Shown here piece by piece: positions 3,528-64,000 of a stretch of DNA of 64,000 nucleotides. Within the stretch, counting starts at the first letter, position 1; each line of letters opens with the position of its first letter. The stretch is from Spironucleus salmonicida (taxonomy: Eukaryota). Location: the NCBI RefSeq assembly GCF_000497125.1, contig NC_090600.1, forward strand, positions 1,633,197-1,697,196. Reading direction: 5' to 3'. The notes below the pieces were generated by a model, which was given only the letters and a program-made list of their open reading frames with translations, did no database searches and was not told where the DNA came from. The position numbers were made by a program, and so were the translations under genes.

Positions 3528-5663
3528 TCAATCATCAAAATATGATTTTCTAACAGAAGATGTATCTATCTTAAAGCCGACACCACCGTGTTTTCTCTTA
3601 TTTTTAGTAGTTCTATAATCTTAACCACATTTATCATTGAAAGGCCGATCATTAACAGAGTGTTATTATCTATCAGAATATTATCTAGTTTGACCTTTAT
3701 CTGAATTTTGACTACGATAATTATTTTGCATATTTTTCGGTTATTAAATAGAAGATGAAGATTCTTAATCAACAACTATCTTGGAAGTCTGATTTGGCTA
3801 TTTTTAGGCTGGTGCTGAATCTGAGCTTGAACTGGAAGATGAATCAGAGCTTGAAGAGCTTTTAGGTTTAGAGCTTGGGGAGCTTGGGATGGAAGATGAA
3901 TCAGAGCTTGAAGAGCTTTTAGGTTTAGAGCTTGGGGAGCTTGGGATGGAAGATGAATCAGAGCTTGAAGAGCTTTTAGGTTTAGAGCTTGGGGAGCTTG
4001 GGATGGAAGATGAATCAGAGCTTGAAGAGCTTTTAGGTTTAGAGCTTGGGGAGCTTGGGATGGAAGATGAATCAGAGCTTGAAGATGCTGACTTTATCAC
4101 TTTCCTGGCAGGAGGTGGGCTTGAACTGGAAGATGAATCAGAGCTTGAAGATGCTGACTTTATCACTTTCCTGGCAGGAGGTGGGCTTGAACTGGAAGAT
4201 GAATCAGAGCTTGAAGAGCTTTTAGGTTTAGAGCTTGGGGAGCTTGGGATGGAAGATGAATCAGAGCTTGAAGAGCTTTTAGGTTTAGAGCTTGGGGAGC
4301 TTGGGATGGAAGATGAATCAGAGCTTGAAGAGCTTTTAGGTTTAGAGCTTGGGGAGCTTGGGATGGAAGATGAATCAGAGCTTGAAGAGCTTTTAGGTTT
4401 AGAGCTTGGGGAGCTTGGGATGGAAGATGAATCAGAGCTTGAAGATGCTGACTTTATCACTTTCCTGGCAGGAGGTGGGCTTGAACTGGAAGATGAATCA
4501 GAGCTTGAAGATGCTGACTTTATCACTTTCCTGGCAGGAGGTGGGCTTGAACTGGAAGATGAATCAGAGCTTGAAGATGCTGACTTTATCACTTTCCTGG
4601 CAGGAGGTGGGCTTGAACTGGAAGATGAATCAGAGCTTGAAGATGCTGACTTTATCACTTTCCTGGCAGGAGGTGGGCTTGAACTGGAAGATGAATCAGA
4701 GCTTGAAGATGCTGACTTTATCACTTTCCTGGCAGGAGGTGGGCTTGAACTGGAAGATGAATCAGAGCTTGAAGATGCTGACTTTATCACTTTCCTGGCA
4801 GGAGGTGGGCTTGAACTGGAAGATGAATCAGAGCTTGAAGATGCTGACTTTATCACTTTCCTGGCAGGAGGTGGGCTTGAACTGGAAGATGAATCAGAGC
4901 TTGAAGATGCTGACTTTATCACTTTCCTGGCAGGAGGTGGGCTTGAACTGGAAGATGAATCAGAGCTTGAAGATGCTGACTTTATCACTTTCCTGGCAGG
5001 AGGTGGGCTTGAACTGGAAGATGAATCAGAGCTTGAAGATGCTGACTTTATCACTTTCCTGGCAGGAGGTGGGCTTGAACTGGAAGATGAATCAGAGCTT
5101 GAAGATGCTGACTTTATCACTTTCCTGGCAGGAGGTGGGCTTGAACTGGAAGATGAATCAGAGCTTGAAGATGCTGACTTTATCACTTTCCTGGCAGGAG
5201 GTGGGCTTGAACTGGAAGATGAATCAGAGCTTGAAGATGCTGACTTTATCACTTTCCTGGCAGGAGGTGGGCTTGAACTGGAAGATGAATCAGAGCTTGA
5301 AGATGCTGACTTTATCACTTTCCTGGCAGGAGGTGGGCTTGAACTGGAAGATGAATCAGAGCTTGAAGATGCTGACTTTATCACTTTCCTGGCAGGAGGT
5401 GGGCTTGAACTGGAAGATGAATCAGAGCTTGAAGATGCTGACTTTATCACTTTCCTGGCAGGAGGTGGGCTTGAACTGGAAGATGAATCAGAGCTTGAAG
5501 ATGCTGAATTCTTGATATTTTTTTAAATCGGTTCATTATCCGAAAAAGTTAATTTATTGATTGTATTTATTAATTCTTTTTCTATAATTTTTTAATCAAT
5601 CTTAGTTTATGAAGATAGCATAGAGGATAATGACTTTGTTAGATCCTATGTCTACTTATTCAT
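3528..5663 (-). CDS. Nopp140/Srp40-like nucleolar phosphoprotein (711 aa)
   Basis: Alternating Ser/Asp and Pro/Lys repeats; C-terminus DKCGQDYRTTKNKRKHGGVGFKIDTSSVRKSYFDD resembles the SRP40_C domain; continuous frame under code 6. Confidence 0.75.
3826..5507. repeat. Coding tandem repeat of 66-bp and 57-bp units with a 360-bp higher-order duplication
   Basis: 66 bp (SASSSSDSSSSSSPPPARKVIK) ~16 consecutive plus 2; 57 bp (SSSSSDSSSIPSSPSSKPK) in two blocks of 4; lines at 3841 and 4201 are identical. Confidence 0.95.
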
Positions 5664-5730
5664 TGAATTAAAGTGGAAAAAGAAAATGTTTTATTATTAT
5701 AATATATTATATAACTGATCTACAAAATAA

Positions 5731-6600
5731 ATGTCAAAATAGATTTGGGGGTATAATTAAAGCACCATGACTCCGGCTAAGATAAAGTAAAGGTCATAAT
5801 AACTAAAATCTTCTAAGAAGTTATAATAAGAGCTATATATAGATAATAAATAATTGTCTGAAGATCAAATTAATAAAATATTTTTTGTTAATGAAGACTA
5901 CATTTCAGAAGAGCTTGACAAGAAAAATAATTTAGTTATTAAAATTGCTGAGCTGATTATTCCGATGTCAAAATAATTTGAATCTTCCCATATAAAAGAT
6001 TTTCTAAATTTTTAATCTCTTTTTAGACTTTACACCTTCAAAACACCCCAATTGTAACTGAAAACTTATTTTAACCCTACAAAATCTACCCCATATTTCA
6101 CAAAAATGACTCGAAATGAAATACTCATGTTTAAATTTGTCTTTAAATAGTTTGGCTTAACGTTTAAAACTGTAGAACAAATGTCAATTTAGCTATTTTA
6201 GTACTTCACCTCTATTTCTAATAGCTTAATTTCGAACTAATTTACAATAAATATGTCTTTATACGAAAGATATAAAATTACTGTATTAACCAATATTGGT
6301 AATGAATTTGATATTTGTAATGTGGAGAATGACATAGATTTTGCGTCAAGACTTAAATAAATTTTCGAGTCAAAACCCAGATAAACTGTAATTTTAGAGC
6401 TAAAATTGAAGTTATTTAAATTATATTCTGCCCAAGAACATAATTTTCCTGAAGTGGAAAACGTTTTAAAAATTAATTTTCCTGGCGTGTTTAAGGGTTC
6501 TGTTGTTACTTTTCTACTTTAAATGATATAGATGGCATAATAAATTTTTGGGAAGAGTATTTTTTAATATTTTTAAAGTAAGTAAAGTGATTTTGACTGA
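5731..6600 (+). CDS. Hypothetical protein (289 aa)
   Basis: MSKQIWGYNQSTMTPAK...KQSDFD*. Confidence 0.7.
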
Positions 6601-42344: not shown

Positions 42345-42549
42345 TCTATTTTTCTAAATATGTTATTTAATTGTAATTAGTTATATAGTTTTTATTATTC
42401 ATAGATAAATATAATTAAGACAAAATAGATAGATTTTTCATTTGCTTGTAAAAACTTCCTTTGATGAATAAAATATATATTTGGATTAAAGGTTAAATTT
42501 TATTAAGAGCATACTTATTTATATATAGTTATTTATATCTAGTAATTAA

Positions 42550-43275
42550 ATGCCAATATATTTAAACATAGATAATTGCACAGGTTGTTCGAGTTGCGAG
42601 ACAGCATGTTCTAAAGAGGCTTTAATAATGATAAACAATAAACCTGTATTAAATTCGGATGAGTGTGTTCTATGCGGTCATTGTTTTGCTATTTGTCCAA
42701 CAGGATGTTTTTCGTTATTAGGTTATGAATCTGAAAATTTATAAATGGATGTTAATAATATTATTGATGCTATAGTAATGAGAAGAACGATTCGCCATTT
42801 TAAATAAGAAAGTGTCGATTAAGATTTATTATATAAAATAATTAACATCAGCAGGTATGCACCATCTGCCTCAAATAAACGTCCAGTTAAATTTTTAGTT
42901 ATAGGAAGATCTACCATGTAACAATTACTTCCTGTCATTGTAAATTAGTTACAGCTCACTAGCAATGATAATACATATCTTGTATATCGAAATGCTCCAC
43001 ATTGTATTATCACATATGCATCTATGGATTTAAAATATCCACCTGAATAAGATGCTGCTATTTATTTAACTCAGATTGAATTGTATGCACAAAAGTATGG
43101 ATTAGGTACATTTTGGGCTGGTAGAGTTTCGAATGGACTCTAATAGTAAGGTGCTTAAATATTAGGGCTTCAAGGCATGTCAATTCTAAGTTGCATGGGT
43201 ATAGGGTATCCAAATATAAAATTTGCAAGACCTGCTGCAAGGTAGGATGTTGGAAACGTAATTTGGATTGATTGA
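42550..43275 (+). CDS. Ferredoxin (2x[4Fe-4S])-nitroreductase fusion
   Basis: CTGCSSCETACS and CVLCGHCFAICP; MRRTIRHF, SRYAPSASNKRP, ELYAQKYGLGTFWAG, MGIGYP. Confidence 0.92.
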
Positions 43276-45457: not shown

Positions 45458-47464
45458 ATGGAGATATAAACATATATTTTTTGTTAAAATGAGAGCCTTG
45501 CTAAGTAGCTTAATTTTCCTCATTTTCTCAACATTTAACCTGATTTTTAACCCTAGTATGATACTGTTGTTTACTCAACATTCAATTCAGAAACTATATT
45601 GAGATCCACGTTAAAAAATGAATAATTAGATCTATAAAAGTAATAGATATATAAAATGTGTGGTTAAAACTGCCTATTTGTTTAGAAATTGGACCAGTTA
45701 AAAAACTATAAGGTATTTGAGCCCCTTTATAATGGATTAAATCTAGCTAAAACGGAGTCAACTGTGTTATTACAGCAACCATATTAGATTATATTATTAC
45801 TTAAGTTGAATGAGCAAAATCTATAAAAAATCTAAAAAGTTAGTTAGCTATTTGGTAAGTTATAATTTTTGAATGCTTCTCTATCATCTTCTTTAATTTC
45901 TGAAGAACTGCCGTTAGTAATAATTTCCCCAGAAAAACACAAAAAAGCATAATAAGAATTAATTAATAGTATACTAGAAGCTAGAAAATAGTTTTAGGAC
46001 ATCAAAAATATGTAATTTCCAGAGACAAACGATTCGATGATATAGGCAAATGACGAAGAAATTTCCCCTAAAAAGAAATCAGTTTTAAGCCAGTCACCTA
46101 GTTCGTAAAATAGTTCCAATAAAGCGATGACACCTACACTGGAAGAAAAATAGTCTTAGTTGCCACCTTTATTTTAAGGATCTTATATCTAACATTAATT
46201 ATAAAATAGTGATGTTAAATCACTTTAACATTAAGTGATTTCACCTATATAGGGTTATAAAGAATGTTCATAAAACTCAGAAGTAGATATTTTAGCGGAG
46301 GTAGAAAATAATTTAGACGTGCTGAATAATGAGGAATTATAAGATATTATCAAAGCTAATGAATAATTTTAAAACGAAATTATTAATGATTCTAAGTAAT
46401 CTACTGAGAGTATTATGTTTAGCTAATAGTTGACTAGTTTAAACTAATCTCCAATTAGGATTAATAATAATAGTTAAAGTTAGCTTCCACATTCTCCTTA
46501 TAATGATGTATAGTCTAGATTAAAAGACGTAGAAATAATATTATAAATGAATAATAATTCAACATTATAATAGTCACTTTTTGTGATTCAAGAATTAATA
46601 GATGATATCAGATTAAATAGTTAGCAAGATCCCAAAGTTTAGGAGAATTTGACAGCATATTTTAACTTTTAAAGTTAAGATGTGAAACCTGAGAATGTTA
46701 TATATTTGACAGAGGTAGAACAGATAATAAAAAAGCACTAATTATGCTACTCAGATTCTCTAATAGTATTAAATAGCGCAATAAAACCTACTAGATAATT
46801 AAGAACTAGAATATAACCTCTTCAAAAAATTGGGCTTATGTTAGATGCTAGTTATTACCCAATTGATAAATAAAACCTGACTGGCAAGTAGGATGTTATT
46901 AAAGCACCGAAGGAATCATCACCTATAGTATAAAACAGATTTACATTCCATCATACTCCGTTAAATAATAACAGTTCAAGTCAGTTAAAAGAGAAATAAT
47001 TATCATAAAATACCAAATCTAATGAATATCAGTATCTAGATTATAATCCAGATCATTTATAAGATATGTCGTTAATTGAAGCCCAGACAGTCCGGGCATT
47101 ATAGTAGTTGGGCGATAAATTGGAATATTCTGTAAATGTGAAAGAAGAGGCATTAAAATCTGGAATATCTTTTAATTATGATGATTTATATGAAAATGGG
47201 ATATCATAATCTAAAAATATATCACCGGTAGTCGCTTAAGAATTTAATGATATCAAATCAGAACTACATTTGATTAAGGATCAAGTATCTTAGATTTCGT
47301 AAAAGGTTAAAGACTCTAGTATTGCTGAATCATCATTTTATGAACGATAGAAATATGCACCAACAGTTTAAAGAATTCACGTTCCTGCATATAAAGGTGA
47401 TTCTTTACTAGATAGAGTTCACAAGGCTAGAAAGAATATCTTAGACATAAGATAATCATAATGA
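45458..47464 (+). CDS. Hypothetical Gln/Ser-rich protein (~668 aa)
   Basis: Long frame MEIQNIYFCQNE...ILDIRQSQ*. Confidence 0.65.
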
Positions 47465-47544
47465 TTTTGTTAAATTATTATATGTATTTTATTACATAAA
47501 TTGACATAAACCACACAATATTATTTAAACCACAAATTTTAAAA

Positions 47545-48309
<765 letters not shown>

Positions 48310-50925: not shown

Positions 50926-51375
50926 TCACTTGAACTTTTCAATTATACAACTGGCCCAGTCGCTGAGATAGTCTTCAAGACTTTCCTTAGATGCTCTGTC
51001 AAATTTATACAGTTAGATCATTCTCTATCCACCTAACTTCATAAATATATTATCGGCATCAATTGCAGCATAATTATGCTTTTCATGGCGCGAGCTTCCA
51101 ATGCCAAAAACAGCATATTTTTTGCCATTGAAGTTATTGATAAATTCTTCTGATTCTGCAAAAAAATTCATTCCTCTGTTGGCAGAAGATGGGTGATCAC
51201 CGTCAAAAAATGTAGATGTTAAGTATACAAAATCTGAGTTTACTTAAGCAGGCATAATATCTTTAGTAGAAATTGGCTCAGATATGGATATATTCTTAGC
51301 TTTAAGTAGGCTGAATAAACTACCTGCAACGGTTTTAGTTTGACCTTTTTCCGTGGAATAAATAATTTGAAGCAT
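50926..51375 (-). CDS. Flavodoxin
   Basis: IIYSTEKGQTKTVA, LTSTFFDGDHP, KYAVFGIGS, LGGQRM. Confidence 0.9.
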
Positions 51376-51759
51376 TCTAATTTTGTATACTTCTTATATG
51401 ATATTTAATTTTGAAAATAATATTCAAAATAAAGAGTATAATCAAACAATATATACACCTGAAAATCTTTGAATGAATTATTTATACTATAAATATGAAC
51501 TAGATTAGGTGAATAAACTGTAACGATAAAGGATCAAAACTCTCAAAACCTTACAAAAATAAAATATAGTATCTAAAAATATCAATAACTATAAACTAAT
51601 TATAAATTAACTTTTTTGAATAATTATTTTTAAAATAAATAAAATATACAGATAAGCAGTAATAAAAGATTAAGAATCAAAACCAACTTATAAATAAGTG
51701 ATATCAGCTCTATAAAAATAAGATGCTTTAGGAGAATACTCAAAAGAGGTGATCAAAAT

Positions 51760-52230
51760 ATGGATGGACTTCCAAAAAGTCCGGGCGCCGATGGCGACCA
51801 TTAAAGTAAAGTAAACTTCAGTCAAACCAATTATAATAATATGCAATTCTCTTTATTAAAGTTTGAAGAGGATAGTAATAATACTAAGTTTGGTCATTAT
51901 AGTAAAATATTAATAGCAAGATATATTTCTTTAGAATTAATAGATAGACTATTGTATGACATGGTCGAATAAGTTGTAGCATTATCAGAGTACTGTTTTA
52001 AGGGTGACGTTAGATTGTACAATACGATGATTATTTTAGACACGATTCTGTAAGAGCACTAATCAACGTCATCTAAAGTATGTAAGATTTATTTATAAGA
52101 ATTAATTAATAAAGTTTTGAAAAATAATAAACGAAAAGATCTCATTAAATTAGTTGAGAATCTATTTTAGATAGTAACTAAAACGTTAACATGGGGTGGA
52201 ATGTGCACACATTTATTTTTTTAATTTTGA
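51760..52230 (+). CDS. Possible hypothetical protein (156 aa)
   Basis: Open frame MDGLPKSPGADGDH...; no motif, start uncertain. Confidence 0.35.
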
Positions 52231-53315
52231 TTTTGTGCGTTAGATATATTTTCTATTTCCCGCTGTATTTGAAATAAATATAACCGATATTTATGATCTA
52301 TTTTAATTTATTCGAATCTTGAGAAATTATTATAATTATTAAAAATAAATATTAATAGTGGGTAAAATGATGTATAATCCATCGGAAAACACGGCACTTA
52401 TTGGCGGTACAACTGGCCCCCAATCTCTAAAGAGATCGATAGTACAACCGATACCGCTTTATTTGCTATTCTGTTGATATTTTTTTAAATCAATCTTTGA
52501 TATTGATAAAGCTGCAAATATTTATAGATTATAAAATATTGTTGCATGCGATTTTTTAGTTTGATTAACGATCACATGGGAATTTATGGGGGCGCACCAT
52601 TCTCCTAACTGCTGCATCTTATTTAAATTGACTGAGCAGAATAGAATTTGAATTAGAATTATAACACTCAACCCACAATCTTCATTCCGCACCAGCCTGC
52701 AGTTCATCGGCACTCAGGCTGGTGCTCAACCACATATCATAGAATCGGTAAACCGTTAAAGACCACCTGGTATCCTAATGCAATAAGTGCTCCCATCATC
52801 CGCATACCAGCACTGACTCACACCAATCAGGCAGCAGGTGCACCTGATAGTTGGCATGGAACTGCTACATTGGACTGGATACCTTTCACATTGAGCAGAA
52901 TTAAGAGCGAACCCCACCCCACCTAAACTAATATGCTGCTCTCCCAGCGATCTTCAGGCGAGCACTGTTATTTTGATGCATATCAGGACGCCTGAGCTGC
53001 TGCCTCCGGTTCATGCTAACAGTGGGGCATGCACAGATAAACTACGGTTGACTCGAATATGAGATAGGTGTATAGAATATAATGCATAAATATATAATAT
53101 AATTTAGAGAATGCAGAATATATACTATTTACACTTTAGCACTGAGCCTATATTGGTTATGCCCAGAGGATATATATGATAATAGATATACTAGGCTAGC
53201 ACGCACTAGTGAAATACTAAGTTCGGTAAGTTAGTTAGCTAGCGTCCTCAAGCAGCTAGTTGCTAGCTAGCAAGAGCTTGGGTAAGATTAAAGCACGAAT
53301 GAAGAGCTACCTTTA

Positions 53316-54203
53316 ATGGTACGGTAAGGATCCCCATCTGCCGCATTATACTATACCCCAATAGAAGCATATCGGAATATATTCTATTAGACGAATTTGT
53401 ATATAACGAGGTTAGGGAGTATATTGCTAGCCTAAACTATTTATAATAGTATTTAGTATGAATATATCTAGTTATAATAATATCAAAACACAAAGATACT
53501 GTGTTCGAAAAAGCAATCTAATACAGCGACGGAGAAGGGAAAGTTAATCAGAAAGTCAAAAACAAGAGATTAAAATTGCATATGGATATCATACCCAGAG
53601 CGAGCATACTATAGTTTAGCTTTTGATGGGTTCGATGGATATGAAAACTTGCGTATAGAGCTAATCGTTCTATTTCGCTACAGCATTACTGGTAGGTTTT
53701 AGGCATCAAATGTATTGCAAGCACCTATTTCGTTAAGTACAAGACGATGCCTCGGTTGCCAATAAGTTTTGATATTGGGTCCTACATTCTTGGGCATGGA
53801 AGCACAATATTGGACTTAGTGTATTCTGCTATAAAATAACACTTTCGGTACAATATTGGTACTAAATTATTATAGTAGTAATACTAGCAGTAATTCTATA
53901 TTACCTTCCACATATCAATATCACATATATTTAATATATGGGTAGAACTTAGCGAAGCGGATATGCTAGATGGGGAGTATGGTTCTGCCAGTAGGCACTT
54001 AGCACGCCTGTAAGAATAAATGGCTGGGAAGTTTGGACATAAAGGTATCAGCTGGCTTTCTAATGTTTGCTTTAGCCGGTGGCGAGGATAGCGCTAGCTG
54101 GTGGTCAGGATCCAGCGAGGTAGCAGCAATAACGTAATTTATCGAGAGCAGGGTTGAACTTATGCTAGCTTAGGACTTCCACATTTTGGTGCTACGAGGC
54201 TGA
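53316..54203 (+). CDS. Orphan ORF (295 codons) reading into the satellite array
   Basis: ATG 53316 to TGA 54201-54203 traced codon by codon without internal TGA; no recognisable motif. Confidence 0.3.
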
Positions 54204-57200
54204 GTCGATGCTGTTGGCATACTGAATAATGGTTTACTCTTCATATTTGGCATAGGTGGCTGCTACTGAACTGGGTACCACCAGTACTGGTACCCCAAGT
54301 AGTTCCATAGACAGCACCAAGGCAGGCGTGAGTGGTACTGGGATAGTGCTGGATGATTATACAATACTATAGTATATATAGTAATATCTTAATTGGAGTT
54401 TAGTAGTATATATGCATTGGGAGTGGTGCCTATAAGGATATTTAGCATATTACTATTGTATTTATAGAATATACTACTATGCTTACTAATATATATTCAC
54501 TTATGAGCCCAGGTGCACAGTAGCCTAAGAAGGCTATTCTTACTAGTAATGCAAGCACAGGCTATGCCGAATACTGTTTGTATATTCTATCTTTAATACC
54601 CGGATGCTGCATAATCTATCAAAAATGATACTCTGCAGTCTCACTCGGTATGCTGCTTAAGACCGAAGCATAGGGATAGATGAGTTTTAGCTTGTAACGA
54701 CGACTCGCAGGATGAGTTTTACCAAAGCGAGGTCAGCGAGAGTGTGGCTATCAGGGTGACGAGATGGCGCTAGCTGGTGGTCAGGACCCAGCGAGGTAGC
54801 AATATCATAATTTAGCAAGAATAGGGTTGGACTTATGCTAGCTTAGGCCTTCCACATTTTGGTGCTACGACCCTGAGTTGCGGCTGTTGGCATACTGAAT
54901 AATGGTTTACTCTTCATATTTGGCATAGGTGGCTGCTAGTGAAGTGGGTACCACTAGTACGGTACCCCAAGTAGTTCCATAGACAGCACCAAGGCAGGCG
55001 TGAGTGGTACTGGGATAGTGCTTGATGAGTATGCAATACTATAGTATATATAGTAATAGCTTAATTGGAGTTTAGTAGTATATATGCATTGGGAGTGGTG
55101 CTTGTAAGGATATTTAGTATATACTATTGTATTTATATAATATACTACTATGCTTACTAATATATATTCACTTATGAGCCCAGGTGCACAGTACACTAGG
55201 AAGGGTATTCTTACCTGTAGAGTACAAGCACAGGCTATGCCGAAGACTGTTTGTATTCTATCTTTAATAACTATCTGCTACTGAAGTGGGTACCACTAGT
55301 ACTGGTACCCCAAGTATTTCCATAGATAGTGCTAAGGTAGGCATGAGTGGTACTGGCATAGTGCTTGATGACAATGCAATACTATAGTATATATAGTAAT
55401 ATCTTAATTGGAGTTTAGTAGTATATATGCATTGGGAGTGGTGCTTGTAAGGATATTTAGTATATACTATTGTATTTATATAATATACTACTATGCTTAC
55501 TAATATATATTCACTTATGAGCCCAGGTGCACAGTACACTAGGAAGGGTATTCTTACCTGTAGAGTACAAGCACAGGCTATGCCGAAGACTGTTTGTATA
55601 TTCTATCTTTAATAACTATCTGCTACTGAAGTGGGCACCACTAGTACTGGTACCCCAAGTATTTCCATAGATAGCACCAAGGCAGGCGTGAGTGGTACTG
55701 GGATAGTGCTTGATGAGTATACAATACTATAGTATATATAGTAATATCTTAATTGGAGTTTAGTAGTATATATGCATTGGGAGTGGTGCTTGTAAGGATA
55801 TTTAGTATATACTATTGTATTTATATAATATACTACTATGCTTACTAATATATATTCACTTATGAGCCCAGGTACAAAGTACACTAGGAAGGGTATTCTC
55901 ACTAGTAATGCAAGCACAGGCTATGCCGAAGACTGCATGTATTTTATCTTTAATAACTATCTGCTACTGAAGTGGGCACCACTAGTACTGGACCCCAAGT
56001 AGTTCCATAGATAGCACCAAGGCAGGCGTGAGTGGTACTGGGATAGTGATTGATGAGTATACAATACTATAGTATATATAGTAATATCTTAATTGGAGTT
56101 TAGTAGTATATATGCATTGGGAGTGGTGCTTGTAAGGATATTTAGTATATACTATTGTATTTATATAATATACTACTATGCTTACTAATATATATTCACT
56201 TATGAGCCCAGGTACAAAGTAGCACTAGGAAGGGTATTCTTACCTGTAGAGTACAAGCACAGGCTATGCCGAAGACTGCTTGTATTTTATCTTTAATACC
56301 CGCATGATGCATAATCTATCAAACATGATACTCTGCAGTCTCACCCGGTATGCTGCTTAAGACAGAAGCATAGGGATGGATGAGTTTTAAATGGTAACGA
56401 CGACTCGCAGGATGAGTTTTGCCAAAGCGAGGTCAGCGAGAGTGTGGCTATCAGGGTGACGAGATAGCGCTAGCTGGTGGTCAGGACCCAGCGAGGTAGC
56501 AATATCATAATTTATTAAGAACAGGACTGACCTTATGCTAGCTTAGGCCTTCCACATTTTGGTGCTACGAGCCTGAGTCGATGCTGTTGGCATAGTGTAT
56601 AATGGCTTAACCTTCATATTTGGCATAGCTGGCTGCTACTGAAGTGGGTACCACTAGTACTGCTACCCCAAGTAGTTCCATAGACAGCACCAAGGCAGGC
56701 GTGAGTGGTACTGGGATAGTGCTTGATGAGTATGCAATACTATAGTATATATAGTAATAGCTTAATTGGAGTTTAGTAGTATATATGCATTGGGAGTGGT
56801 GCCTATAAGGATATTTAGTATATTACTATTGTATTTATATAATATACTACTATGCTTACTAATATATATTCACTTATGAGCCCAGGTACACAGTAGCACT
56901 AGGAAGGGTATTCTTACCTGTAGAGTACAAGCACAGGCTATGCCGAAGACTGCTTGTATTTTATCTTTAATAACTATCTGCTACTGAAGTGGGTACCACT
57001 AGTACTGGTACCCCAAGTATTTCCATAGATAGTGCTAAGGCAGGCGTGAGTGGTACTGGGATAGTGCTTGATGACAATGCAATACTATAGTATATATAGT
57101 AATATCTTAATTGGAGTTTAGTAGTATATATGCATTGGGAGTGGTGCTTGTAAGGATATTTAGTATATACTATTGTATTTATATAATATACTACTATGCT

Positions 57201-60200
57201 TACTAATATATATTCACTTATGAGCCCAGGTGCACAGTACACTAGGAAGGGTATTCTTACCTGTAGAGTACAAGCACAGGCTATGCCGAAGACTGTTTGT
57301 ATATTCTATCTTTAATAACTATCTGCTACTGAAGTGGGTACCACTAGTACTGGTACCCCAAGTATTTCCATAGATAGTGCTAAGGCAGGCGTGAGTGGTA
57401 CTGGGATAGTGCTTGATGACAATGCAATACTATAGTATATATAGTAATATCTTAATTGGAGTTTAGTAGTATATATGCATTGGGAGTGGTGCTTGTAAGG
57501 ATATTTAGTATATACTATTGTACTTATATAATATACTACTATGCTTACTAATACATATTCACTTATGAGCCCAGGTGCACAGTACACTAGGAAGGGTATT
57601 CTTACCTGTAGAGTACAAGCACAGGCTATGCCGAAGACTGTTTGTATTCTATCTTTAATAACTATCTGCTACTGAAGTGGGCACCACTAGTACTGGTACC
57701 CCAAGTATTTCCATAGATAGTGCTAAGGCAGGCGTGAGTGGTACTGGGATAGTGCTTGATGACAATGCAATACTATAGTATATATAGTAATATCTTAATT
57801 GGAGTTTAGTAGTATATATGCATTGGGAGTGGTGCTTGTAAGGATATTTAGTATATACTATTGTACTTATAGAATATACTACTATGCTTACTAATATATA
57901 TTCACTTATGAGCCCAGGTGCACAGTAGCCTAAGAAGGCTATTCTTACTAGTAATGCAAGCACAGGCTATGCCGAATACTGTTTGTATATTCTATCTTTA
58001 ATACCCGGATGCTGCATAATCTATCAAAAATGATACTCTGCAGTCTCACTCGGTATGCTGCTTAAGACCGAAGCATAGGGATAGATGAGTTTTAGCTTGT
58101 AACGACGACTCGCAGGATGAGTTTTACCAAAGCGAGGTCAGCGAGAGTGTGGCTATCAGGGTGACGAGATGGCGCTAGCTGGTGTTCAGGACCCAGCGAG
58201 GTAGCAATACCGTAATTTATTAAGAACAGGACTGACCTTATGCTAGCTTAGGCCTTCCACATTTTGGTGCTACGAGCCTGAGTCGATGCTGTTGGCATAG
58301 TGTATAATGGCTTAACCTTCATATTTGGCATAGCTGGCTGCTACTGAACTGGGTACCACTAGTACTGCTACCCCAAGTAGTTCCATAGACAGCACCAAGG
58401 CAGGCGTGAGTGGTACTGGGATAGTGATTGATGACAATGCAATACTATAGTATATATAGTAATAGCTTAATTGGAGTTTAGTAGTATAGATGCATTGGGA
58501 GTGGTGCTTGTAAGGATATTTAGTATATACTATTGTACTTATAGAATATACTACTATGCTTACTAATATATATTCACTTATGAGCCCAGGTGCACAGTAC
58601 ACTAGGAAGGGTATTCTCACTAGTAATGCAAGCACAGGCTATGCCGAAGACTGTTTGTATATTCTATCTTTAATAACTATCTGCTACTGAAGTGGGCACC
58701 ACTAGTACTGGTACCCCAAGTATTTCCATAGATAGCACCAAGGCAGGCGTGAGTGGTACTGGGATAGTGCTTGATGAGTATACAATACTATAGTATATAT
58801 AGTAATATCTTAATTGGAGTTTAGTAGTATATATGCATTGGGAGTGGTGCTTGTAAGGATATTTAGTATATACTATTATATTTATATAATATACTACTAT
58901 GCTTACTAATATATATTCACTTATGAGCCCAGGTGCACAGTACACTAGGAAGGGTATTCTTACCTGTAGAGTACAAGCACAGGCTATGCCGAAGACTGCT
59001 TGTATTTTATCTTTAATACCCGCATGATGCATAATCTATCAAACATGATACTCTGCAGTCTCACCCGGTATGCTGCTTAAGACAGAAGCATAGGGATGGA
59101 TGAGTTTTAAATGGTAACGACGACTCGCAGGATGAGTTTTGCCAAAGCGAGGTCAGCGAGAGTGTGGCTATCAGGGTGACGAGATAGCGCTAGCTGGTGG
59201 TCAGGACCCAGCGAGGTAGCAATACCGTAATTTATTAAGAACAGGACTGACCTTATGCTAGCTTAGGCCTTCCACATTTTGGTGCTACGAGCCTGAGTCG
59301 ATGCTGTTGGCATAGTGTATAATGGCTTAACCTTCATATTTGGCATAGCTGGCTGCTACTGAAGTGGGTACCACTAGTACTGCTACCCCAAGTAGTTCCA
59401 TAGACAGCACCAAGGTAGGCGTGAGTGGTACTGCCGTAGTGCTTGATGACAATGCAATACTATAGTATATATAGTAATAACTTAAATGGAGTTTAGTAGT
59501 ATATATGCATTGGGAGTGGTGCTTGTAAGGATATTTAGTATATACTATTGTATTTATATAATATACTACTATGCTTACTAATATATATTCACTTATGAGC
59601 CCAGGTACAAAGTAGCACTAGGAAGGGTATTCTTACCTGTAGAGTACAAGCACAGGCTATGCCGAAGACTGCTTGTATTTTATCTTTAATACCCGCATGA
59701 TGCATAATCTATCAAACATGATACTCTGCAGTCTCACCCGGTATGCTGCTTAAGACAGAAGCCTAGGGATAGATGAGTTTTAAATGGTAACGACGACTCG
59801 CAGGATGAGTTTTGCCAAAGCGAGGTCAGCGAGAGTGTGGCTATCAGGGTGACGAGATAGCGCTAGCTGGTGGTCAGGACCCAGCGAGGTAGCAATACCG
59901 TAATTTATTAAGAACAGGACTGACCTTATGCTAGCTTAGGCCTTCCACATTTTGGTGCTACGAGCCTGAGTCGATGCTGTTGGCATAGTGTATAATGGCT
60001 TAACCTTCATATTTGGCATAGCTGGCTGCTACTGAACTGGGTACCACTAGTACGGTACCCCAAGTAGTTCCATAGACAGCACCAAGGCAGGCGTGAGTGG
60101 TACTGGGATAGTGCTTGATGAGTATGCAATACTATAGTATATATAGTAATAGCTTAATTGGAGTTTAGTAGTATATATGCATTGGGAGTGGTGCCTATAA

Positions 60201-63200
60201 GGATATTTAGTATATACTATTGTATTTATATAATATACTACTATGCTTACTAATATATATTCACTTATGAGCCCAGGTGCAAAGTACACTAAGAAGGCTA
60301 TTCTCACTAGTAATGCAAGCACAGGCTATGCCGAAGACTGCTTGTATTTTATCTTTAATAACTATCTGCTACTGAAGTGGGTACCACTAGTACTGCTACC
60401 CCAAGTAGTTCCATAGATAGCACCAAGGCAGGCGTGAGTGGTACTGGGATAGTGCTTGATGAGTATGCAATACTATAGTATATATAGTAATATCTTAATT
60501 GGAGTTTAGTAGTATATATGCATTGGGAGTGGTGCCTATAAGGATATTTAGTATATTACTATTGTATTTATATAATATACTACTATGCTTACTAATATAT
60601 ATTCACTTATGAGCCCAGGTGCACAGTACACTAGGAAGGGTATTCTTACCTGTAGAGTACAAGCACAGGCTATGCCGAAGACTGCTTGTATTTTATCTTT
60701 AATACCCGCATGATGCATAATCTATCAAACATGATACTCTGCAGTCTCACCCGGTATGCTGCTTAAGACAGAAGCATAGGGATGGATGAGTTTTAAATGG
60801 TAACGACGACTCGCAGGATGAGTTTTGCCAAAGCGAGGTCAGCGAGAGTGTGGCTATCAGGGTGACGAGATAGCGCTAGCTGGTGGTCAGGACCCAGCGA
60901 GGTAGCAATATCATAATTTATTAAGAACAGGACTGACCTTATGCTAGCTTAGGCCTTCCACATTTTGGTGCTACGAGCCTGAGTCGATGCTGTTGGCATA
61001 GTGTATAATGGCTTAACCTTCATATTTGGCATAGCTGGCTGCTACTGAAGTGGGTACCACTAGTACTGCTACCCCAAGTAGTTCCATAGATAGCACCAAG
61101 GCAGGCGTGAGTGGTACTGGGATAGTGCTTGATGAGTATACAATACTATAGTATATATAGTAATATCTTAATTGGAGTTTAGTAGTATATATGCATTGGG
61201 AGTGGTGCTTGTAAGGATATTTAGTATATACTATTGTATTTATATAATATACTACTATGCTTACTAATATATATTCACTTATGAGCCCAGGTGCAAAGTA
61301 CACTAAGAAGGCTATTCTCACTAGTAATGCAAGCACAGGCTATGCCGAAGACTGCTTGTATTTTATCTTTAATAACTATCTGCTACTGAAGTGGGTACCA
61401 CTAGTACTGCTACCCCAAGTAGTTCCATAGACAGCACCAAGGTAGGCGTGAGTGGTACTGCCGTAGTGCTTGATGACAATGCAATACTATAGTATATATA
61501 GTAATATCTTAATTGGAGTTTAGTAGTATATATGCATTGGGAGTGGTGCTTGTAAGGATATTTAGTATATTACTATTGTACTTATATAATATACTACTAT
61601 GCTTACTAATATATATTCACTTATGAGCCCAGGTGCACAGTAGCACTAAGAAGGGTATTCTTACCTGTAGAGTACAAGCACAGGCTATGCCGAAGACTGC
61701 TTGTATTTTATCTTTAATACCCGCATGATGCATAATCTATCAAACATGATACTCTGCAGTCTCACCCGGTATGCTGCTTAAGACAGAAGCATAGGGATGG
61801 ATGAGTTTTAAATGGTAACGACGACTCGCAGGATGAGTTTTGCCAAAGCGAGGTCAGCGAGAGTGTTGCTATCAGGGTGACGAGATAGCGCTAGCTGGTG
61901 GTCAGGACCCAGCGAGGTAGCAATATCATAATTTATTAAGAACAGGACTGACCTTATGCTAGCTTAGGCCTTCCACATTTTGGTGCTACGAGCCTGAGTC
62001 GATGCTGTTGGCATAGTGTATAATGGCTTAACCTTCATATTTGGCATAGCTGGCTGCTACTGAACTGGGTACCACTAGTACTGGTACCCCAAGTATTTCC
62101 ATAGACAGCACCAAGGCAGGCGTGAGTGGTACTGGGATAGTGATTGATGACAATGCAATACTATAGTATATATAGTAATATCTTAATTGGAGTTTAGTAG
62201 TATATATGCATTGGGAGTGGTGCTTGTAAGGATATTTAGTATATTACTATTGTACTTATATAATATACTACTATGCTTACTAATATATATTCACTTATGA
62301 GCCCAGGTGCACAGTACACTAGGAAGGGTATTCTCACTAGTAATGCAAGCACAGGCTATGCCGAAGACTGTTTGTATTCTATCTTTAATAACTATCTGCT
62401 ACTGAAGTGGGTACCACTAGTACTGCTACCCCAAGTATTTCCATAGATAGTGCTAAGGTAGGCATGAGTGGTACTGGCATAGTGCTTGATGAGTATGCAA
62501 TACTATAGTATATATAGTAATATCTTAATTGGAGTTTAGTAGTATATATGCATTGGGAGTGGTGCTTGTAAGGATATTTAGTATATACTATTGTACTTAT
62601 ATAATATACTACTATGCTTACTAATACATATTCACTTATGAGCCCAGGTACACAGTAGCACTAGGAAGGGTATTCTTACCTGTAGAGTACAAGCACAGGC
62701 TATGCCGAAGACTGTTTGTATTCTATCTTTAATAACTATCTGCTACTGAAGTGGGTACCACTAGTACTGGTACCCCAAGTATTTCCATAGATAGTGCTAA
62801 GGCAGGCGTGAGTGGTACTGGGATAGTGCTTGATGACAATGCAATACTATAGTATATATAGTAATATCTTAATTGGAGTTTAGTAGTATATATGCATTGG
62901 GAGTGGTGCTTGTAAGGATATTTAGTATATTACTATTGTACTTATATAATATACTACTATGCTTACTAATACATATTCACTTATGAGCCCAGGTGCACAG
63001 TACACTAGGAAGGGTATTCTTACCTGTAGAGTACAAGCACAGGCTATGCCGAAGACTGCTTGTATATTCTATGTGTAGTACCTGCCTGCTACTGAAGTGG
63101 GTACCACTAGTACTGCTACCCCAAGTAGTTCCATAGACAGCACCAAGGCAGGCGTGAGTGGTACTGGGATAGTGCTTGATGACAATGCAATACTATAGTA

Positions 63201-64000
63201 TATATAGTAATATCTTAATTGGAGTTTAGTAGTATATATGCATTGGGAGTGGTGCTTGTAAGGATATTTAGTATATACTATTGTACTTATATAATATACT
63301 ACTATGCTTACTAATATATATTCACTTATGAGCCCAGGTGCACAGTACACTAGGAAGGGTATTCTTACCTGTAGAGTACAAGCACAGGCTATGCCGAAGA
63401 CTGTTTGTATTCTATCTTTAATAACTATCTGCTACTGAAGTGGGCACCACTAGTACTGGACCCCAAGTAGTTCCATAGACAGCACCAAGGCAGGCGTGAG
63501 TGGTACTGGGATAGTGCTTGATGACAATGCAATACTATAGTATATATAGTAATAACTTAAATGGAGTTTAGTAGTATATATGCATTGGGAGTGGTGCTTG
63601 TAAGGATATTTAGTATATTACTATTGTACTTATATAATATACTACTATGCTTACTAATACATATTCACTTATGAGCCCAGGTGCAAAGTACACTAGGAAG
63701 GGTATTCTCACTAGTAATGCAAGCACAGGCTATGCCGAAGACTGCATGTATTTTATCTTTAATACCCGCATGATGCATAATCTATCAAACATGATACTCT
63801 GCAGTCTCACCCGGTATGCTGCTTAAGACAGAAGCATAGGGATGGATGAGTTTTAAATGGTAACGACGACTCGCAGGATGAGTTTTACCAAAGCGAGGTC
63901 AGCGAGAGTGTGGCTATCAGGGTGACGAGATAGCGCTAGCTGGTGGTCAGGACCCAGCGAGGTAGCAATATCATAATTTATTAAGAACAGGACTGACCTT
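54080..64000. repeat. Two-module tandem satellite array (A ~343-345 bp, B ~335 bp), truncated by window end
   Basis: A starts ctgctactgaagtgggtaccactagtac, B starts cccgcatgatgcataatctatc; about 21 A and 8 B copies plus a partial leading B. Confidence 0.95.

Follow-up and report, generated by a model that had tools for sequence, protein, structure and literature searches.

The end of contig C5 of the diplomonad Spironucleus salmonicida raises two questions: why a satellite built of two modules should avoid one of their four possible adjacencies, and what so large an array does beside a telomere. The window, by which we mean the whole 64,000-nucleotide stretch analysed here (C5:1633197-1697196; NC_090600.1 in assembly GCF_000497125.1), lies near the right end of C5 in a genome of 14.5 Mb and 42 contigs; its last 10 kb consist of two modules of about 340 bp, A and B, which alternate irregularly, A in runs and B never doubled. 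The array is, with a probability of roughly two in three, a compound tandem repeat of variable copy number that lies upstream of the genes of a telomere-linked multigene family and was shaped by two nested duplications and by recombination. The missing adjacency is explained by the nested duplication and is not a code; nothing else in the string is ordered.

The array is part of a chromosome-end cassette

The array starts at window position 54078 and continues past the window end at 64000. In full it spans 35,860 bp (77 A, 28 full B and 2 half-B), starting 44,861 nt and ending 9,002 nt from the contig end, and leads through a short flank, D, to a large open reading frame (ORF). This ORF is read in genetic code 6 (TAA and TAG encode Gln), which opens ordinary genes as well, for example that of triosephosphate isomerase. 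The features distal to the window are:

To C5 1723133, forward strand: distal part of the array, closing with a half-B (B1)
C5 1723134-1723500, forward strand: flank D, 367 bp, from the array end to the ORF
C5 1723501-1728915, forward strand: ORF P0001, 1,804 residues in genetic code 6, reading toward the contig end
C5 ~1729289 to the contig end at 1732135: (TAGG)n telomere tract of ~2.9 kb

The stop codon of P0001 is 373 nt from the (TAGG)n tract. This is the telomere repeat of S. salmonicida, whose chromosome ends are described as gene-poor (PMC9509377); the accessible part of that paper makes no mention of a two-module array. The last ~27 nt of the contig (L031 6910-6939) are not telomeric and look like the remnant of a sequencing adapter.

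A cassette, for the census that follows, is a flank, an array and an ORF pointing to the contig end, and cassettes were located by a motif from flank D. The genome holds 23 copies of this motif (control, 0), each oriented toward the contig end and at most 56.1 kb from it, and none at an internal site; every copy has an array upstream and an ORF of the same family downstream. The nine large contigs have cassettes at 15 of their 18 ends, and three small contigs (C14, C23 and C28), each finishing in (TAGG)n, carry one as well. The ends lacking one (C4 left, C6 right and C9 right) have no telomere tract in the assembly, and the three small contigs may be these missing ends. The arrays measure 0.63 to 35.9 kb, a 57-fold range, and sum to about 150 kb; the distance from array to start codon is 353-370 nt in the 20 cassettes, out of 23, for which it was measured, the remaining three being those in which the ORF is listed from an upstream in-frame ATG (the terminal C6-left ORF and that of C14) or from an atypical start 403 nt away (C28). 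Array-linked ORFs are open for ~1,470-1,890 codons in 21 cases and frameshifted in two (C3 right and C14). Cassettes may stand head to tail, four at C1 left and two each at C6 left and C1 right; the terminal one at C1 left adjoins (TAGG)n, and no telomere repeats separate the tandem copies. In the five terminal intact copies that were measured, 373-880 nt lie between stop codon and telomere tract. A 3.8-kb spacer at C1 left holds no ORF of more than 290 codons. The family also has members without an array, several of them internal.

An earlier note, made from the window alone, had taken the array for a gene-free domain and a candidate centromeric or subtelomeric one. Its subtelomeric candidate is the one that the census bears out, through the position of every cassette and the telomere that caps C5, and the mapping of related arrays per chromosome, which it had proposed as a check, gives the distribution described above. 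Gene-free is true of the inside of the array, but the array as a whole is the upstream flank of a large ORF in every instance. Two further candidates were rejected. Subrepeats of a ribosomal DNA (rDNA) intergenic spacer would adjoin ribosomal RNA genes, of which Rfam finds no match in 13 end loci (127,816 bases). Telomeric non-long-terminal-repeat retrotransposons of the GilM/GilT or HeT-A type are marked by a reverse transcriptase or endonuclease ORF; the adjoining ORFs have no Pfam match to either.

Two other features of the ends were seen alongside the cassettes. Ends of C2, C3, C4, C6 and C9 without (TAGG)n (L044, L046, L048, L049, L054, L056, L060) contain or end in (TATTA)n or (TATAGTAA)n, in tracts that exceed 12 kb at C6 right. 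A second end-linked gene, of 490-720 residues and on the opposite strand, is present at eight ends (C1R, C2L, C4L, C4R, C6R, C7R, C9L and C9R); its copies have a common C-terminus and, wherever the start was printed, a GSGLGG dinucleotide-binding motif.

Origin of the missing adjacency

Mapping with fixed anchors resolves the array in the window into a leading half-B followed by 21 A and 8 B, all on the forward strand:

52614..54077, forward strand: proximal flank U1, 87-97% identical among 9 cassettes at chromosome ends; joins B at B position 164
54078..54260, forward strand: leading half-B, B positions 164-342 (B2); corresponds to the proximal end of the B2-A-B1 segment from which the array descends
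54261..54591, forward strand: one A
54592..54933, forward strand: B (B1, junction and B2)
54934..56291, forward strand: four A
56292..56633, forward strand: B, with the outer duplication junction at ~56431-56439
56634..57996, forward strand: four A
57997..58338, forward strand: B
58339..59011, forward strand: two A
59012..59353, forward strand: B
59354..59684, forward strand: one A
59685..60026, forward strand: B
60027..60697, forward strand: two A
60698..61039, forward strand: B
61040..61712, forward strand: two A
61713..62054, forward strand: B
62055..63757, forward strand: five A, with an A-A junction of the second type at ~63073-63086
63758..64000, forward strand: B, interrupted by the window end

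Unit steps are 342 nt from B to A, 340-346 nt from A to A and 328-332 nt from A to B, and 13 of the 28 are not a multiple of three. A has a GC content of ~36% and B of 46%, and the two share no homology (best BLAST match 13 nt, E 2.1).

The string read by eye in the earlier note is thus recovered in full (A-B-AAAA-B-AAAA-B-AA-B-A-B-AA-B-AA-B-AAAAA-B after the half-B), with B starts no more than 6 nt from those it gave, and its description of the modules as unrelated holds. Three of its statements need qualification. B is indeed never doubled in any of the 23 arrays, but from the window alone this would not have been significant, the chance of seeing no BB being 0.075 there and 5e-5 in the full C5 array. 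A and B do alternate irregularly as ~340-bp units, but B is not an independent module, as arrays start and end with its parts. What was called a grammar comes down to the single rule that BB does not occur, which follows from the origin of B; the lengths of the A runs are geometric in the three longest arrays (chi-square p 0.44, 0.38 and 0.99) and lack serial correlation (lag-1 permutation p 1.0, 0.10 and 0.58).

The origin of B can be read from the edges of the arrays. All but one begin with B2, the 3' part of B (the exception, C9 left, begins in a broken A), all 23 end with B1, its 5' part, and at three sites (C1 right, C2 left and C2 right) an array has stayed a single B2-A-B1 unit of 634-669 nt. 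It follows that each full B consists of B1 fused to B2 and is the scar that a tandem duplication of B2-A-B1 left behind. The middle of B matches flank D on its left and a proximal flank, U2, on its right, over a short imperfect microhomology; in the window, distal-flank-like sequence meets U2-like sequence in this way at the junction at ~56431-56439. Of the 92 full B, 86 share one junction sequence, and this argues for a single origin with later spread from end to end. The proximal flank takes two alternative and mutually unrelated forms, U1 and U2. Because U1 joins at B position 164, beyond the U2-derived bases, it looks like a later graft.

U1 is also 68% similar to two internal sites on C5. 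These belong to a region in which two family genes without an array face in opposite directions, some 36 kb from each other (C5:1080298-1117668; L102, L106-L108), with one U1 match on either side; it is possibly the relic of an old chromosome end.

Among 397 adjacencies in 19 arrays, AA occurs 175 times, AB and BA 111 times each and BB never; the other four arrays have no BB either. The A-A junctions are of two types (103 and 66 of 174, plus 5 variants), and in the window 12 are of the first type and one of the second. Only A-A, A-B and B-A joints thus exist, and homologous exchange can therefore alter the A runs but cannot make BB. A higher-order repeat satellite was rejected, given the geometric run lengths of the C5 array, their lack of a lag effect and a longest exact repeat of 773 nt; regularity elsewhere is only local, as in the (AB)n of C23.

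These arrangements are consistent with four steps. The ground state, as the flanks show, is one B2-A-B1 segment of ~660 bp, ~360 bp upstream of the start codon. A tandem duplication of this segment, shown by the junction that is still present, joined B1 to B2 and created B, probably once. Duplication of A only, or loss of a B between two A, made A-A joints at least twice, as the two junction types show; this step probably came next. Finally, chromosome ends would undergo unequal exchange and short conversion, each within itself and with one another, and so reshuffle the three joints, yielding arrays of all observed lengths without BB; the same exchanges, where they cross the adjoining gene, would make its copies mosaics. 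Nested duplication has here given a two-unit satellite a 'forbidden' word, a clean natural case in which the single-copy ancestor can still be seen.

Turnover among chromosome ends

A monomers diverge by 5.5% within arrays and 7.6% between them, B monomers by 1.7% and 5.2%. Exchange between ends is apparent from individual copies: 35 of the 92 B match a B of another array without a single substitution, and the C5-right and C3-left arrays are nearly indistinguishable in their B (0.012 between the two, against 0.017 and 0.006 within). Inside the C5 array, the four-gamete test fails for 690 of the 1,035 informative site pairs, and A monomers far apart are no more diverged than neighbouring ones. 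Along the cassette, flank type, first B2, last B1 and D are unlinked (Mantel r 0.01-0.12, p 0.05-0.39, in short segments of low power; 22 of the 23 cassettes, C9 left being excluded). The gene is no less a patchwork: over 18 windows of 300 nt, the best match of the C5 copy switches among nine of 18 other copies, blocks of 95-100% identity standing beside blocks of 24-60% and changing every few hundred bases. These patterns are all in keeping with chromosome ends that often exchange short stretches of sequence, without regard to where the array stops.

The adjoining gene family

P0001 has a Walker A-like motif, SQSSKSGKS (residues 308-316), and a Walker B-like motif, IILVDE (residues 519-524). 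The motifs S[KR]SGK[ST], hhhhDE, hhhGTD, D[FY]hhxhhG and [ED]xGxH are kept in paralogues of only ~20-25% identity, a conservation which suggests that the array-linked protein is a P-loop NTPase. Structure models are poor in the region of the P-loop motif, where the predicted local distance difference test (pLDDT) score is below 50; an alpha/beta region at residues ~740-990 is modelled fairly confidently and was compared as part of a structure search with the whole model. The array-linked proteins have no credible Pfam family and no match in a search of PDB sequences, no Pfam helicase core is matched in sets of 4 and 14 family proteins, and the RecQ/SF2 motifs DExH/D, SAT and QxxGR are not found in P0001. 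A profile search of 1.84 billion representatives gave 20 matches; of the 10 examined, 8 were named S. salmonicida and 2 were unnamed, and it found no named relative outside this species. P0001 also lacks the marks of a surface antigen that were looked for (highest 19-residue hydropathy 1.47, Cys 1.3%, no CxxC), and published predictions, which their authors advise to take with caution, give a signal peptide in none and a membrane helix in one of the 22 family rows listed (PMC6397501).

The same 22 rows, those listed for the orthology group of these genes in the part of the published RNA-seq data that we used, all rise when antioxidants are left out (log2 1.4-7.2), and oxygen raises 16 of them (log2 1.2-4.5); genome-wide, the two conditions induce 1,424 and 1,031 genes, respectively (PMC6397501). 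The family is therefore transcribed and stress-induced, although the rows are not independent, because reads cross-map between copies, and 12 of the 22 are tied to sequences. Large, mosaic, strongly induced and unannotated, the gene family is a better target than the array; the part of the cassette that calls for an explanation is the genes.

Distant paralogues, of ~25% identity, lie at C8:22039-27198, C4:1686805-1693929 and C9:3615-14000 and include P0021, P0022, P0032 and P0043. Some of them have long coiled coils or repeats of ~110 residues, and UniRef names one of them 'dynein heavy chain', a label that Pfam does not support.

Passenger or functional element

To judge by its variability, the array is most likely a passenger, again at about two in three, which would expand because chromosome ends recombine with one another. 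Its effect is most likely to give the ends more homology and to set the gene further from the chromosome core, with no need for a particular length. In line with this, an ORF is present at every array across the whole range of lengths. A and B give no signal of RNA structure (z -0.9 to +0.5) and no excess of palindromes, a hairpin is perfect in only 75 of 284 A, and the array has no match in Rfam.

Several points weigh on the other side. All 23 cassettes retain at least one copy of B2-A-B1, and its spacing to the start codon hardly varies; this combination suggests that B2-A-B1 does something for the gene. Among family members mapped to sequence, oxygen induces 8 of 8 that have an array and 1 of 4 that lack one (Fisher p 0.018, post hoc), which hints at a part in regulation. 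The length of the C5 array and the order of its monomers, moreover, rest on one assembly, in which its last three A monomers are rich in gaps (15, 30 and 4 columns) and look error-rich.

The first of these points are the grounds for an alternative which we consider unlikely, although it accommodates several facts: that B2-A-B1 is an upstream control element, such as an enhancer that responds to stress or a buffer that shields the gene from telomeric silencing, and that its copy number tunes the gene. It would account for the nearly constant spacing, for the strong stress induction of the family (PMC6397501, supplement) and for the oxygen split, and short-read contigs from runs guessed to be RNA span B2-A-B1. 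However, the RNA nature of these runs is only a guess; the split draws on the 12 rows tied to sequence, which are not independent, since reads from one copy also map to others that are nearly identical; a gene without an array (tag 12028) is itself induced, by 3.3 log2; and the promoter signals described for S. salmonicida, as far as the source was available, lie within ~60 bp of the start codon (PMC3916229).

Quite unlikely is a recombination platform, in which the array would be selected, as in the 70-bp repeats of trypanosomes, to start or bound the conversions that diversify a telomere-proximal gene. The array has the same position and orientation in all 23 cassettes and ranges from minimal to long, which would suit such a role, as would the mosaic genes and the lack of linkage between the U1/U2 flank type and the sequence on the distal side of the array (Mantel r 0.01 and 0.05). 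But the breakpoints are scattered within the gene and not anchored at the array, and even the last B1 and D, which are adjacent, are unlinked (r 0.02; 110-340 nt, low power), so that an array boundary is not required for exchange. The protein, furthermore, does not resemble a surface antigen, and blocks in common with array-linked genes are also seen in copies that lack an array (C4 right and C2 left).

We hold a selfish or telomere-maintenance element to be just as improbable; here flank, array and ORF would form one mobile unit, as in yeast Y' or fungal telomere-linked helicase (TLH) genes, whose P-loop protein aids its spread or the repair of ends under stress. The head-to-tail cassettes, the short distance from stop codon to telomere, the Walker-like motifs kept down to ~20-25% identity and the induction by oxidative stress all fit this. 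They are offset by the lack of Pfam and PDB-sequence matches and of SF2 helicase motifs in the proteins searched for them, by the missing fixed left end (two unrelated proximal flanks, and paralogues that are array-less and internal) and by localisation predictions that are mostly cytoplasmic in the published rows consulted (PMC6397501).

The centromeric satellite of the earlier note is very unlikely. Its size of 36 kb and its ~340-bp monomers, perhaps close to two nucleosome lengths, speak for it; the array, though, is present at both ends of six of the nine large contigs, in one to four copies per end and down to 0.63 kb, is always tied to a gene and has no distal-flank motif at an internal site. 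An assembly artefact, the repeat being collapsed or falsely expanded, can practically be dismissed: the array probably exceeds typical read length and has gaps at its distal end, and the genes at C3 right and C14 are frameshifted, but its longest exact self-repeat, 773 nt in 35.9 kb, leaves no long block duplicated verbatim, the 23 arrays have distinct variant sets, and short-read contigs of runs X1, X5 and X6 hold A-to-A back-junctions of both types.

Comparison with known systems

The architecture closest to a compound repeat upstream of a telomere-linked gene is that of the fungal TLH genes. In the portion of the Magnaporthe oryzae study available to us, TLH is present at 11 of 14 ends with its 3' end toward the telomere, and a compound array, HAR-CDEF, ends 181 bp from its start codon; some units are never in tandem, several HARs contain telomere-like motifs, and 4 of 11 gene copies are full length, most being broken (PMC1635262). 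The Spironucleus gene likewise points its 3' end outward, at its 15 large-contig ends and on the three small contigs, and its array, which varies between ends and also has a unit that is never in tandem, ends ~360 bp upstream of the start codon. TLH, however, is a RecQ helicase, while the protein here has neither RecQ/SF2 motifs nor a Pfam match. Unlike several of the HARs, the reference monomers lack TAGG runs, with one TAGG in A, two in B and no TAGGTAG, and A and B, at ~340 bp, derive from the gene's own upstream segment; the genes, too, are open in 21 of 23 cases and mosaic, where most of the TLH copies described are broken.

Y' elements of Saccharomyces cerevisiae, as described in the part of the source consulted, adjoin telomeres in single or 2-4 tandem copies and are moved by recombination (PMC2709909). 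Tandem cassettes adjoin the telomere in the same way at C1 left, with four copies; they differ in that no helicase is identified (Walker A/B-like motifs only) and in having two alternative left flanks. Tandem copies of Y' can be separated by telomere repeats, which is not the case for the cassettes.

In Trypanosoma brucei, a variable-length block of 70-bp repeats lies upstream of the telomeric variant surface glycoprotein (VSG) gene, according to the sections seen (PMC4858185). The variable block upstream of a telomere-proximal gene and the exchange of sequence among gene copies are common to both, but the breakpoints here are not anchored at the repeat, the gene product is not a recognisable surface antigen, and many copies respond together in bulk RNA. 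The Crinkler/RHS-type (CR) proteins, which include the subtelomeric RHS proteins of trypanosomes in the excerpt used (PMC5289972), are a further likeness, as a lineage-specific, subtelomeric and recombining family in which P-loop-like motifs precede a predicted alpha/beta C-terminal domain; the copies read here contain no retroelement insertion, and they have no Pfam match to CR domains.

The TARE/rep20 elements of Plasmodium falciparum are non-coding tandem arrays of variable length, at most ends and beside a multigene family, the TAREs lying between telomere and genes. The Spironucleus array, in contrast, lies centromere-proximal to the last gene and is a nested duplication of two units. Giardia ends, in the part of the paper available, carry rDNA, retrotransposons or pseudo-VSP arrays (PMC7641422), none of which, nor any cysteine-rich surface gene, is found at the cassettes; these instead have the array and an orphan gene of 1,500-1,900 residues. 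Within the reach of our searches, this is the first description of the DNA next to the telomeres of this diplomonad.

One rather speculative extension goes beyond the passenger reading, and we offer it with little confidence: Spironucleus could have an independently evolved counterpart of Y' and TLH, a telomere-capping cassette whose P-loop protein, of a new family and possibly an NTPase with a nuclease, is induced by oxidative stress and acts on the ends, its copies being diversified by segmental conversion and its amplified upstream segment setting the stress response or feeding recombination. If the protein were truly a telomere-acting enzyme, the layout of TLH and Y' would have arisen again far from fungi.

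Other features of the window

Proximal to the array, the window holds ordinary genes as well as a second array of two units. An ORF at 3528-5768 (reverse strand) contains a Ser/Pro-rich coding repeat of two units, of 57 and 66 bp, the latter in 16.5 copies of 100% identity; its C-terminus we take, by look, to be SRP40/Nopp140-like. By eye, 42519-43275 (forward strand) resembles a ferredoxin-nitroreductase fusion and 50926-51375 (reverse strand) a short flavodoxin. The triosephosphate isomerase gene is at 47461-48309 (forward strand; Pfam TIM, E 2.5e-81), ~50 kb from the telomere. Between these genes and the array, a 600-nt stretch at 51615-52206 has inverted, 85% identical copies near the C8-right and C6-left ends.

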